Shown: positions 7,287-10,446 of the stretch, one piece after another
Layout of the letters: every line of letters starts with the position of its first letter
Numbering within the stretch: position 1 is the first letter of the stretch
From: Escherichia phage T5
Length of the DNA stretch: 64,000 nucleotides
Strand: one strand, 5' to 3'
Sequence record: AY587007.1
Translations under genes and position numbers: made by a program
Notes under the pieces: model-generated
What the model was told of the DNA's origin: nothing
The model's database searches: none
Seen by the model: the letters and a program-made list of their open reading frames with translations, nothing else

Positions 7287-7595
7287 ATGAGCGAACAGGT
7301 AAATCAAAACTATGAAGGACACGTTGATGACCAGTCCATCATACTTGGGGAGAAGGAGGGGGAACAAGTAAGATTAACAGTATCTGAATTTCGTGGGAAT
7401 CTATACATGGGTATTCGTTACTGGCTTCTTGATATTAATGATGAATGGTTTCCAACGAAATCTGGCTTCTCTTTTCCTTACACCCTAGAAACAACATCAC
7501 AGCTTTTCTATGCGTTTACACAGATTCTTAGCGAATCTGAGGTTTTACATGAAGTACAGAAACGAGCTGAAGAACTCAAAGCCAAGAATGCCTAG
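7287..7595 (+). CDS. PC4-like single-stranded DNA-binding protein
   Basis: 102 aa; segment LTVSEFRGNLYMGIRYWLLDINDEWFPTKSGFSF matches the conserved core of the PC4/YdbC fold (F-x-G-x-x-Y-x-x-IR-x-W ... P-T-K-x-G-x-S). Confidence 0.5.
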   Translation: MSEQVNQNYEGHVDDQSIILGEKEGEQVRLTVSEFRGNLYMGIRYWLLDINDEWFPTKSGFSFPYTLETTSQLFYAFTQILSESEVLHEVQKRAEELKAKNA

Positions 7596-7612
7596 TTCTT
7601 GGCTTTTTCTTT
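7578..7612 (+). terminator. rho-independent terminator
   Basis: 11-bp perfect stem AAAGCCAAGAA / TTCTTGGCTTT with 7-nt loop, followed by a T-run; overlaps the stop of ORF 7287-7595. Confidence 0.6.
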
Positions 7613-7622
7613 ATAAATGTAT

Positions 7623-7651
7623 TTGCTTTCAACTCAGTTTTGTTATATAAT
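7623..7651 (+). promoter_or_regulatory. sigma70-type early promoter (TTGCTT, 17 bp, TATAAT)
   Basis: TTGCTT 7623-7628, TATAAT 7646-7651, then ATTTATATAAATTAATGAGAGA and ATG at 7683. Confidence 0.55.
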
Positions 7652-7682
7652 ATTTATATAAATTAATGAGAGATATAAATAA

Positions 7683-8654
7683 ATGACTAATGTAAAAGAA
7701 TTTATTAAACGCTGTCAAGAAGCATATTATCAAGGCATGTCTTTAATCTCTGATGAAGAATATGATCGCCTGGTAAAACGCTTCCCGTTAGAGGAAGAGA
7801 TCGGGCCTAAGGGTGATATTCCACATCTATATCGTATGTATTCTTTACAGAAAGTTTACTATAACCGTGGTGATAAACCACCATTCAATCCTTTAGGTCA
7901 GGTGGAAACCGATAAGTTAGATGGTTGTGCAATTTCTCTGCTATATATTAACGGCGAATTTGTTCAAGCATTAACCCGCGGTAATGGTATTCTGGGGAAT
8001 GATGTCACAAGCAACGTAAGATTGCTGAACATTCCTAAAAAGATTTCCCAAAAAGTACCTACTCAAATCACTGGTGAAGTTCTAATTACAAAAGAAGTAG
8101 AAAATAAACGTAACTTTGCCTCTGGTGCTATTAACCTCAAAGATAGCGATGATTTCGTACAACGTATCGGGGAAGGTGGTTTAATCTTCGTTGCATACGG
8201 TATCCAGTGTTCTGCTGAATCTGTAGGTATTACAGAAGCATATTTAAAAGATATGCTTTGGCTAGAGAATGAGAACTTCTTAACAGTTGTTAATGTGCGT
8301 TCCTTCTTTAAATGGATTCCGACGGACGGTAAAGTTGTTCGTATTAATGACAACCACCAATTCTTCCGTGAAGGCTGGACTAATAAATTCCCTCGTGGAG
8401 CATTCGCTATTAAAGAGGATGAAGAAGGCGAGATTACAACTCTTACTAAAGTTGAATGGCAGGTAGGGGCTTCGGGTAAAGTAACTCCAGTTGGTTATTT
8501 TGAACCGGTAATTATTGATGATGCTACAATTGTTAAAGCAACTCTTAATAACGTTGATTATATTAACTCTCTCGATCTAGAGATCGGTTGCCAGATTCGA
8601 GTGATTCGTGCTGGTGGTGTAATCCCGTGCATAGTAGAGCGAGTATACGATTAA
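7683..8654 (+). CDS. NAD-dependent DNA ligase, N-terminal part (adenylation and OB domains)
   Basis: 323 aa; adenylation motif KLDGCAISLLYINGEFVQALTRGNG (KxDG) and OB-domain end IRVIRAGGVIPCIVERV are collinear with bacterial LigA. Confidence 0.8.
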   Translation: MTNVKEFIKRCQEAYYQGMSLISDEEYDRLVKRFPLEEEIGPKGDIPHLYRMYSLQKVYYNRGDKPPFNPLGQVETDKLDGCAISLLYINGEFVQALTRGNGILGNDVTSNVRLLNIPKKISQKVPTQITGEVLITKEVENKRNFASGAINLKDSDDFVQRIGEGGLIFVAYGIQCSAESVGITEAYLKDMLWLENENFLTVVNVRSFFKWIPTDGKVVRINDNHQFFREGWTNKFPRGAFAIKEDEEGEITTLTKVEWQVGASGKVTPVGYFEPVIIDDATIVKATLNNVDYINSLDLEIGCQIRVIRAGGVIPCIVERVYD

Positions 8655-8704
8655 TACATAACCCTTTGCTACCCATCTACCATATCGGAATTATAAAGTG
8701 GTTA

Positions 8705-8733
8705 TTGACATTTTCGCCGCTTAGGTATATACT
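8705..8733 (+). promoter_or_regulatory. sigma70-type promoter (TTGACA, 17 bp, TATACT)
   Basis: Consensus -35 TTGACA 8705-8710 and -10 TATACT 8728-8733 in the gap between the two ligase ORFs. Confidence 0.45.
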
Positions 8734-8797
8734 ATTATCATTCAGTTGAGGGATAGAAAGTTATGGCGAGGGTAAGCCAAGTTAGTTAAAATTGTAG

Positions 8798-8826
8798 TTG
8801 CTAAATGCTTAAATACTTGCTATAAT
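8798..8826 (+). promoter_or_regulatory. sigma70-type early promoter (TTGCTA, 17 bp, TGcTATAAT)
   Basis: TTGCTA 8798-8803, TATAAT 8821-8826, then ATTTATATAAATTGATAAGGAAG and ATG at 8854. Confidence 0.55.
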
Positions 8827-8853
8827 ATTTATATAAATTGATAAGGAAGAAAT

Positions 8854-9636
8854 TTGATGAAAATCGAAATTCCAACACAATGTCCCTCTTGTGGTTCTAA
8901 GCTAGATCTTGTCAACGGACAATTATTCTGTCGTAATAAGTCCAACTGTCCAGCGCAATCAAGTAAGTTAATTGAGAACTTCTGTACAAAAATGAAGTTA
9001 AAGGGCTTTGGCCCGAAAACTATTGAGAAGCTGGAGCTGACGAAGATTTCAGAACTATTTTACCTAACCGAAGAAGATTTGGTTAGAGCCGTGGGTAGCA
9101 AGGTTGCCGCTAAGTTAATTAGCGAATTAAATACTAAAGTTCGCGGAGACATTGACTTTGGTTCAGTTCTCGGTTCTTTAGGAATCCCTCTAATTGGAGA
9201 GGTTGCAGCAAAGAAATTATCCCAAAATTGCACTAGCTTTCAAGATGTGAAGGCTGACGGCAAGGCTGGAGAAAACTATAAAGCCTGGCTAAATTCCCCA
9301 CAAGGCAAGGATGTAATCGAATTACCGTGGAAATTCTCAAAGGGTATTAAGGGTGCTAAAGCTGAGGTCATCATCACTGATGGTCTAGTAGCCCAGCCAA
9401 ATGGAATCACGGTGTGTATTACCGGATCTTTGCAAGATTTTGCAAATCGAACGGATGCAACAAACTATTTAGAAGGTCTAGGATATACGGTTAAGAAATC
9501 CGTTACCAAAGACGTCAAATGCCTAATCTGTGAGGATGAATCGAAGCGTTCTTCCTCATCTTATAAGAAAGCCGAAACGAATGGGATAGAAATCCTGTCG
9601 ATTAAAGAACTATTGGAGAAAAATAATAATGTCTAA
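8854..9636 (+). CDS. NAD-dependent DNA ligase, C-terminal part (Zn-finger, HhH, BRCT)
   Basis: 260 aa; Cys4 zinc finger CPSCGSKL...CRNKSNC at the N-terminus, helix-hairpin-helix-like middle, BRCT-like C-terminus ITGSL...DVKCLICED; collinear with the C-terminal half of LigA. Confidence 0.75.
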   Translation: MMKIEIPTQCPSCGSKLDLVNGQLFCRNKSNCPAQSSKLIENFCTKMKLKGFGPKTIEKLELTKISELFYLTEEDLVRAVGSKVAAKLISELNTKVRGDIDFGSVLGSLGIPLIGEVAAKKLSQNCTSFQDVKADGKAGENYKAWLNSPQGKDVIELPWKFSKGIKGAKAEVIITDGLVAQPNGITVCITGSLQDFANRTDATNYLEGLGYTVKKSVTKDVKCLICEDESKRSSSSYKKAETNGIEILSIKELLEKNNNV

Positions 9637-10396
9637 ACTGAACTGGAACGTAGAAGGTGTAACCGAGTCTCTGAAAGCAAAAGCCACTGCTCTGGGTGTT
9701 GATGTAATCTCTCAAGAACAAGTAGCTGCTATCGCTGCTGAACTGGCTGCTGAAACTGGCAAAGACGTTACCGCTCGCTCTGTTGGCTCTAAGCTGCGTA
9801 AAGAAGGTTTCGAAGTACAGAAAGCTAACGAAGTACAGAAATCCCCGTGGACTCCTGAGCAGGAAGCTGAACTGGTTGATTTCCTGAACGCTCATGCTGG
9901 TCAGTATACTTATGCTGAAATCGCTGCTGCTGTAGCTGGTGGTCAATTTGGTGCTAAGCAGGTACAGGGTAAGATCCTGAGTCTGGAAATGACAGCATCT
10001 GTTAAGCCGACCGAAAAAGCTGCCGCTGTTCGTTCCTTCACTCCGGATGAAGAAACTGACTTTGTTAATCAGGTTGTTGCTGGTGCTACTATTGAAGCTA
10101 TCGCTGCTCACTTCGGTCGCAATATTAAGCAGATCCGTGGTAAAGCTCTGAGTCTGCTTCGTGAAGGTCGTATCGCGGCTATGCCGGTACAGGAAACTTC
10201 AAGTGCTAAAACTCGTGAAGATCTGCTAGAAGGTCTGGATCTGGTTAACATGACCGTTGCTGAGATCGCTGAGAAAACTGGTAAGTCTGAGCGTGGTGTT
10301 AAATCTATGCTGTCTCGTCGTGGTCTGGTTGCTAAGGACTATGATGGTGCCGCTAAGCGTGCTAAACTGGATGCAAAAGCTGCGGCTGCTGAATAA
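9629..10396 (+). CDS. repeat-containing putative DNA-binding protein (abundant early protein, possibly D5-like)
   Basis: 255 aa; four internal repeats (e.g. TARSVGSKLRKEGFEV, GAKQVQGKILSLEM, KQIRGKALSLLREG, VKSMLSRRGLVAKD); very strong major-codon bias suggesting high expression. Confidence 0.5.
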   Translation: MSKLNWNVEGVTESLKAKATALGVDVISQEQVAAIAAELAAETGKDVTARSVGSKLRKEGFEVQKANEVQKSPWTPEQEAELVDFLNAHAGQYTYAEIAAAVAGGQFGAKQVQGKILSLEMTASVKPTEKAAAVRSFTPDEETDFVNQVVAGATIEAIAAHFGRNIKQIRGKALSLLREGRIAAMPVQETSSAKTREDLLEGLDLVNMTVAEIAEKTGKSERGVKSMLSRRGLVAKDYDGAAKRAKLDAKAAAAE

Positions 10397-10413: not shown

Positions 10414-10446
10414 AAGGGGAGGGGGCTATGCTCCTTCCCCTTTTTG
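10414..10446 (+). terminator. rho-independent terminator
   Basis: G/C-rich hairpin AAGGGGAGGGGG-ctatg-CTCCTTCCCCTT followed by TTTTT, directly after the stop at 10396. Confidence 0.6.

Follow-up and report, generated by a model that had tools for sequence, protein, structure and literature searches.

The NAD+-dependent DNA ligase of Escherichia phage T5 is very probably a two-subunit enzyme: the products of ligA and ligB would assemble on nicked DNA, and ligB appears to head a transcription unit of its own. Both genes lie in a 64,000-nucleotide (nt) window of the T5 genome (record AY587007.1), which is the whole stretch of DNA that was analyzed, and all T5 coordinates given here refer to the + strand of that window. 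ligA (T5.116; 7683..8654) encodes the catalytic subunit of 323 amino acids, which comprises domain Ia, the nucleotidyltransferase domain, and the OB domain; ligB (T5.117; 8857..9636) encodes the DNA-binding subunit of 259 amino acids, which comprises a Cys4 Zn finger, an HhH region, a disordered linker, and a BRCT domain. The pair has been deposited as AAS77162/AAS77163. The two-gene ligase is itself already known, and its annotation dates from the publication of the T5 genome. Positions 7500 to 9800 are 99.8% identical, over their full length, to the T5 records AY543070, AY692264, and NC_005859, which annotate both genes as ligase subunits A and B; this is one and the same locus, in which the two open reading frames (ORFs) and the annotation of promoters P-K28b and P-K28a agree, and no substantive difference was seen. 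PMC1684257 credits the discovery of the split T5 ligase to the T5 genome paper of 2005 (Wang et al. 2005, Virology 332:45) and shows that an Ia-nucleotidyltransferase-OB fragment of another LigA still self-adenylates, forming enzyme-adenylate.

We propose that LigA, with its domain Ia, nucleotidyltransferase, and OB domains, would react with NAD+ to form Lys78-AMP and would carry out the chemistry of nick sealing, by homology with LigA and the PR1 complex. LigB, with its Zn finger, HhH, and BRCT domains, would supply the half that clamps the DNA, which in bacterial LigA is part of the same chain, and the two proteins would join noncovalently around nicked DNA. The gene is broken within the linker of approximately 8 to 15 residues that connects the OB domain to the Zn finger. 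At this break, nearly every split locus checked carries a predicted strong sigma-70 promoter, so that ligB would be the first gene of its own early unit (ligB, D5, and then helicase and primase) downstream of ligA. We infer that this promoter is the reason that the fission is maintained.

The domains of the catalytic half were readily recognized. Pfam searches placed in LigA an adenylation domain (PF01653; E = 7.8e-24, 85 bits against a cutoff of 27), which identifies the nucleotidyltransferase, and an OB domain (PF03120; E = 3.8e-22, 78.4 bits against a cutoff of 32.9) at residues 252 to 321 of 323. The catalytic lysine, Lys78, lies in the motif I (KxDG) sequence KLDG and is invariant in an alignment of five LigA sequences. 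Domain Ia was recognized by the motif YY...SDEEYD, in which Y15, Y16, D24, Y27, and D28 are present; Y15, Y16, Y27, and D28 are invariant in the same alignment, and position 24 is either D or N. The correspondence of this motif to E. coli residues was assigned by eye and not by profile, the nicotinamide mononucleotide (NMN)-binding residues of E. coli domain Ia being reportedly Y22, H23, D32, Y35, and D36 (Sriskanda and Shuman 2002).

The domains of the DNA-binding half were recognized as well. The Zn cysteines C9, C12, C25, and C31 do not vary in either LigB alignment, whether of 5 or of 32 sequences, which identifies a Cys4 finger; the Pfam Zn finger profile PF03119 did not reach an E value of 0.01 in T5 LigB and was recorded for some homologues. 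An HhH region was identified by phmmer, which aligned it to residues 402 to 530 of E. coli LigA (E = 1.3e-10), and by Foldseek, which matched it to 2owo_A (E = 8.6e-8). LigB as a whole aligns to E. coli LigA residues 402 to 530 and 591 to 666. The BRCT domain was found by Pfam at residues 183 to 255 (PF00533; 35.4 bits against a cutoff of 21.3). The protein consists, after the Zn finger, of HhH at approximately residues 40 to 160, a disordered linker at 164 to 180, and BRCT at approximately 181 to 259, and its AlphaFold model (mean predicted local distance difference test score, 84.8) shows disorder only at 164 to 180, between HhH and BRCT. No variation in the KLDG lysine, in the motif of domain Ia, or in any of the four Zn cysteines was seen among relatives at 47 to 72% identity.

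An earlier note on this DNA, made from the letters alone, had read two separate ORFs here as an NAD-dependent ligase divided at the OB/Zn-finger boundary, and this reading stands. The ORF list contains both frames, at 7683-8654 (323 amino acids) and 8854-9636, and the alignment with single-chain LigA that the note had proposed paired LigA residue 320 with E. coli residue 390 and LigB residue 3 with residue 402, which places the break in the OB/Zn-finger linker; both halves are colinear with E. coli LigA, one on either side of residues 393 to 400. The canonical single-polypeptide architecture is absent, the two ORFs being in different frames and 202 nt apart. The intergenic spacer (8655..8856; 32% GC) has stop codons in all three frames, seven of them in the ligA frame when ligA's own TAA is included, and since the ORF frames also differ, there is no hidden continuous frame, the objection that the note had raised against itself. 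Its other objection, that the second ORF might lack the C-terminal domains of a ligase, falls with the Pfam match to BRCT. The two promoters and the ribosome-binding site that it had placed in the spacer were confirmed, whereas its spacer length of 199 nt was not. The start of ligB is most likely ATG 8857 rather than TTG 8854, one codon earlier, because it is annotated there in AY543070, because the ribosome-binding site AAGGAAG (8844..8850, read from the sequence) lies 6 nt from ATG 8857 compared with only 3 nt from TTG 8854, and because the chain of the solved homologue begins MKIQIPT; the spacer is therefore 202 nt long.

A heterodimer on nicked DNA has been shown by others, for PR1 only, in PDB entry 9hu3, as stated by its title, [quoted passage not shown] The entry was released on 2026-01-14 and is, with 9i5i, one of the PDB entries for this heterodimeric ligase; a literature search for a paper describing the 9hu3 structure found none. 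Chain B of 9hu3 has the same sequence (100% identity) as LigB of vB_PreS_PR1, a T5-like phage of Providencia. The T5 subunits are 54 to 60% identical to this two-chain homologue, and both chains are full-length homologues: LigA residues 4 to 323 match 9hu3_A residues 11 to 339 (E = 9.4e-104), and LigB residues 1 to 255 match 9hu3_B residues 1 to 244 (E = 7.6e-79). The T5 LigB model superimposes on chain F with a template modeling (TM) score of 0.86 over 161 residues, and Foldseek matched it to chain B with an E value of 1.5e-26. The two-subunit enzyme that the earlier note had envisaged is supported by both the subunit A and B annotation of T5 and the PR1 heterodimer, and by analogy we infer that T5 LigA and LigB would assemble as the PR1 proteins do.

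The split is old and widespread. When viral contigs were scanned with the LigB alignment, 80 loci were obtained, to which 7 loci from annotated phage records were added, and in all 87 loci, down to approximately 40% identity, ligA and ligB are separate, adjacent, on the same strand, and in the same order, with none fused. The ligA stop codon directly follows the OB domain in every one of them, and ligB begins after a spacer of 53 to 1360 nt. An exhaustive search, with 50%-identity representatives, found approximately 100 distinct clusters of stand-alone LigB proteins of 240 to 260 amino acids. Spacers are 202 nt long in Tequintavirus-like phages and 199 nt long in Klebsiella phages, and in the majority of divergent relatives they measure only 53 to 120 nt, a promoter plus leader. 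Some Vibrio, Proteus, and environmental phages have one to three unrelated genes between the ligase halves; genes found at this position include a radical-SAM gene, a crAss001_48-like gene, and small ORFs. On the environmental T5-like contig L042, for example, the gene between ligA and ligB (564-1568) encodes a radical SAM protein of 334 amino acids (PF04055, E = 2.7e-11).

Some records of these relatives deserve comment. In Proteus phage vB_PMC-PL1 (PP502408; L004, 1158-2156), the orthologue of ligA, whose product shares 59% identity with the T5 protein, bears the label "DprA-like DNA recombination-mediator protein," and a 55-amino-acid ORF past ligA bears the label "replicative DNA helicase"; both labels look like annotation errors. 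A few records that carry the names of Listeria, Campylobacter, or Yersinia phages matched the T5 region in a megablast near-identity search and may be mislabeled or contaminant T5-like records.

A promoter at the break is also a shared feature. The T5 spacer contains P-K28b (core TTGACA-17-TATACT, 8705..8733), which is conserved in Klebsiella phage Roth50, and P-K28a (core TTGCTA-17-TATAAT with an upstream TG, 8798..8826), which lies 30 nt before the ligB start. Both were found by promoter scan and are annotated in AY543070, as 75-nt features that jointly take up approximately 150 of the 202 spacer nt. When 80 nt upstream of ligB were scanned in 32 representative loci, nearly all had a near-consensus sigma-70 site (TTGnnn-17-TATAAT) 23 to 41 nt before the ligB start; the mean was 10.4 matches of 12, compared with 7.6 (maximum, 9) in coding controls, and TATAAT was perfect in 30 of the 32. 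Downstream, D5, which encodes a DNA-binding protein (9629..10396), starts 8 nt before the end of ligB (ATGTCTAA), and because of this overlap with the ligB stop, D5 is probably cotranscribed with ligB from the P-K28 promoters. The overlap itself (9629-9636) suggests translational coupling within that transcription unit, and a terminator-like hairpin past D5 (10414..10442; 13-bp stem with 8 GC pairs, followed by a T run), predicted by the terminator scan, is the likely end of the ligB-D5 unit.

Several points weigh against the interpretation of ligA and ligB as an active two-subunit ligase maintained by a promoter at the break. Motif V of T5 LigA has an arginine, Arg220, where E. coli LigA would have Lys290; Arg220 is invariant in the five-sequence alignment. 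The Pfam HHH_2 profile (PF12826) scored LigB at 25.1 bits, just under its cutoff of 27. In these AT-rich spacers, the promoter scores of single loci are only modestly above those of shuffled sequences (median fraction, 0.026). Moreover, the 32 representative loci are related, so that they represent one conserved promoter and not 32 independent events, and the link between promoter and fission is a correlation. Finally, a literature search for a biochemical assay of T5 LigA and LigB themselves found none.

Fused forms of the enzyme bear on why the split persists. Ten compact single-chain ligases of 555 to 578 amino acids were found among the LigB hits (P0151, P0221, P0174, and others); they are metagenomic, T5-like where checked, and 31 to 42% identical to T5 LigB across the ten. 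The best-scoring ones are 35 to 42% identical to T5 LigB, and the LigA half of P0151 is 37% identical to T5 LigA (tblastn). Two of the three fused forms checked, P0151 and P0221, occupy the same syntenic slot as the T5 genes, on distant T5-like metagenomic contigs: fused forms of 557 to 568 amino acids are encoded in the order D3-like gene, PC4-like gene, ligase gene, and D5-like gene, and the P0221 locus (L089) additionally has DnaB helicase and primase genes. Unlike the T5 pair, the fused forms have their OB domain and Zn finger joined by an ordinary peptide linker of 11 to 17 residues, at which a promoter scan found no internal promoter. The D5-like gene lies within 1 to 3 nt of the fused ligase gene, which leaves no room for a promoter.

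Most of the fused forms are 39 to 48% identical to split forms, compared with 25 to 41% to one another (the pair P0229/P0239 is at 51%), a comparison limited by the fact that split forms outnumber fused forms by approximately 10 to 1. In a neighbor-joining tree of LigB regions, which was star-like, unbootstrapped, and unresolved, the fused forms were scattered. The sequence comparisons hint at more than one fission or fusion event at the OB/Zn linker, and this linker may have undergone fission and fusion repeatedly. Three LigB-like proteins, P0223 (341 amino acids), P0238 (331 amino acids), and P0257 (322 amino acids), have 60 to 90 additional N-terminal residues; they may be truncated calls of fused ligases or may be split at another boundary, such as that between the nucleotidyltransferase and OB domains.

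Other explanations of the split have to be weighed. It can be envisioned that the fission is itself adaptive, with LigB made from its own strong promoters in an amount, or at a time, that differs from that of LigA; LigB may then have a role of its own, in nick sensing or in the recruitment of partners through BRCT, or it may limit when active ligase forms. Two strong promoters immediately upstream of ligB in T5, and the recurrence of a promoter there in almost every split lineage sampled, are consistent with such uncoupling, as is the choice of "phage nick sequence" DNA for the PR1 structure, a sign that the ligase on the phage nick sequence has already drawn the attention of others. The terminator scan found no terminator-like hairpin between ligA and ligB; therefore, ligB could be read through from the ligA promoter as well as transcribed from its own promoters. 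However, the fused orthologues, which have a D5-like gene almost abutting the ligase gene, argue that uncoupling is not essential, and ligA and ligB always occur together, so that we consider adaptive uncoupling unlikely. It is likewise doubtful that the break is a conserved regulatory device, and not a neutral accident, by which LigB heads the replication operon and is made separately from LigA. If that were true, the phage would control when and where active ligase forms, so that, for example, the site-specific nicks of a T5-like genome would stay unsealed. The earlier note had also offered a mobile-DNA scar, the spacer being what remained after the loss of an intron or homing endonuclease gene that had once interrupted the ligase gene. 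The junction can certainly host such a gene: in the Salmonella phages SP3 and vB_Sen_SG_WM_RUS_R2, the two halves are separated by an ORF of 218 amino acids with a GIY-YIG domain (PF01541, E = 1.1e-5), which starts with an ATG that overlaps the stop codon of ligA, and the final codons of ligA have been recoded, as expected after homing. Both P-K28 promoters are kept downstream of it. Other lineages have the unrelated genes mentioned above at the junction, and fragmentation by a homing endonuclease is documented for nrdA, which encodes the large subunit of ribonucleotide reductase (PMC3045599). Nevertheless, the comparison of junctions that the note had suggested found the endonuclease gene in these two Salmonella phages only, in 3 of 437 matching records (SP3 is present twice). 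Because it is so rare, the GIY-YIG gene is a late, sporadic insertion into an already existing gap and not the cause of the split, and because all 87 loci are split, the split is far older than the insertion. The very short spacers in the majority of divergent relatives, which hold a promoter and leader, also argue against a scar. In T5, the ORF list has no endonuclease-domain ORF in the spacer (8655-8856), an Rfam scan of positions 7550 to 9700 at E ≤ 1 gave no spacer match (two chance-level hits lay outside it), and the spacer RNA fold did not differ significantly from shuffled sequences (z = -0.29). An intron remnant was accordingly rejected for T5, and so was an endonuclease scar, the extra DNA of phages HdH2 and HildyBeyeler lying upstream of ligA and not between the halves. 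As a remote origin, a mobile-element scar is possible, without support in T5; as the explanation of the split, we regard it as very unlikely.

Two further explanations have next to no probability. One is that the split is a sequencing artifact or a decaying pseudogene with two nonfunctional ORFs, for which nothing speaks beyond the bare fact of two ORFs. The same architecture is present in at least 430 independently sequenced T5-like genomes, the spacer has multiple stop codons in every frame, the catalytic and metal-binding residues are kept at 47 to 52% identity in cultured relatives, the halves are still recognizably full-length in clusters down to approximately 31% identity, and a homologous pair has been crystallized as an active-site complex on DNA. 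The presence of the split across hundreds of genomes and the solved PR1 complex effectively refute this explanation. The other is that the halves are joined, whether through a split intein once they have been made or through frameshifting or read-through while they are being translated, a notion to which the split-intein "fractured genes" of environmental metagenomic sequences (PMC2677866) lend some precedent and whose probability we judge to be practically nil for T5. Only 2 residues of LigA follow the OB profile, and LigB has its first Zn cysteine already at position 9, which leaves no room for an intein; by residue accounting, there is no unassigned sequence for intein N- and C-terminal fragments at the C terminus of LigA and the N terminus of LigB. 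The different reading frames and the seven stops in the ligA frame stand against frameshifting and read-through, and 9hu3 holds two separate chains. Residue accounting and stop codons thus exclude a split intein, frameshifting, and read-through. Two subunits that assemble without covalent joining, with ligB at the head of its own unit, therefore remain our preferred explanation.

In SP3, the inserted gene (L033, 5199-5840; MG387042) is a free-standing GIY-YIG homing endonuclease gene. The RefSeq record NC_048001 labels the SP3 features at this position "NAD-dependent DNA ligase" three times, and the endonuclease ORF appears to be misnamed.

The region upstream of ligA has features of its own. 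The early promoter of ligA (7603..7677) corresponds to the AY543070 promoter feature 65284-65358. The -10 box and downstream sequence TATAATATTTATATAAATT are common to the ligA promoter and the ligB-adjacent promoter, and a near-identical block, TATAATATTTATATAAATTrATrAG, which comprises the -10 box and the sequence downstream of it, occurs in 7640-7682 and in 8821-8856. Comparable AT-rich downstream sequence precedes ligB in several distant relatives. To judge from its sequence, the shared block resembles an initial transcribed region that T5-type early promoters have conserved. A terminator-like hairpin (7578..7606; terminator scan, 12-bp stem and then a T run) at the end of the PC4-like gene T5.115 overlaps the start of the ligA promoter feature, and a similarly placed terminator is annotated in phage HdH2. 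The product of T5.115 (7287-7595), the gene just upstream of ligA, matched the domain of the PC4/p15 transcriptional coactivator, which binds single-stranded DNA (PF02229, E = 1.2e-7). On L088 and L089, two distant T5-like contigs from metagenomes, the ligase gene is likewise preceded by a PC4-like gene, recognized by a tblastn match to T5.115 on L088 and by PF02229 on L089. Between the PC4-like gene and ligA, phages HdH2 (L002, 682-870) and HildyBeyeler (L003, 683-955) have an extra ORF, of 62 or 90 amino acids, that T5 does not have, which makes this a second variable insertion point beside the ligase module.

The ligase is a clear natural case of a multidomain enzyme that works as two noncovalently assembled chains. 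Our additions to what was known are modest: a junction promoter in almost every split lineage that was sampled, syntenic fused orthologues, and an occasional endonuclease gene at the junction. These comparative observations could guide work on why the fission persists and the design of split or fused ligase tools.

The T5 ligase is reminiscent of the nrdA genes fragmented by homing endonucleases (PMC3045599) and of the mobile elements of T4-like phages (PMC2988022). As with fragmented nrdA, an essential enzyme of DNA metabolism is encoded in two adjacent pieces that reassemble noncovalently. Unlike fragmented nrdA, the T5 ligase has no endonuclease gene between its halves, either in T5 or in nearly all of its relatives, and has a promoter at the break. 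The PR1 ligase (9hu3 and 9i5i) is also a two-chain enzyme with the same domain split: its chain A, of 339 amino acids, matches T5 LigA, and its chain B, of 248 amino acids, matches LigB at 54% identity. PR1 differs in belonging to another genus of T5-like phages and in short indels in the nucleotidyltransferase domain and the HhH-BRCT linker, and its ligase structure has been solved, whereas the PDB copy that was searched contains no structure of the T5 proteins themselves. Bacterial single-chain LigA, as in E. coli (PDB 2owo and 5tt5), has the same order of domains as the T5 pair (Ia, nucleotidyltransferase, OB, Zn, HhH, and BRCT), the same KxDG catalytic lysine, and the same NMN-binding motif in domain Ia, and the T5 halves are colinear with it. 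However, E. coli LigA is one chain of 671 amino acids, whereas the T5 enzyme is two chains of 582 amino acids in total, with the OB-Zn linker cut and with nucleotidyltransferase and HhH regions that are shorter than those of its bacterial single-chain counterparts.

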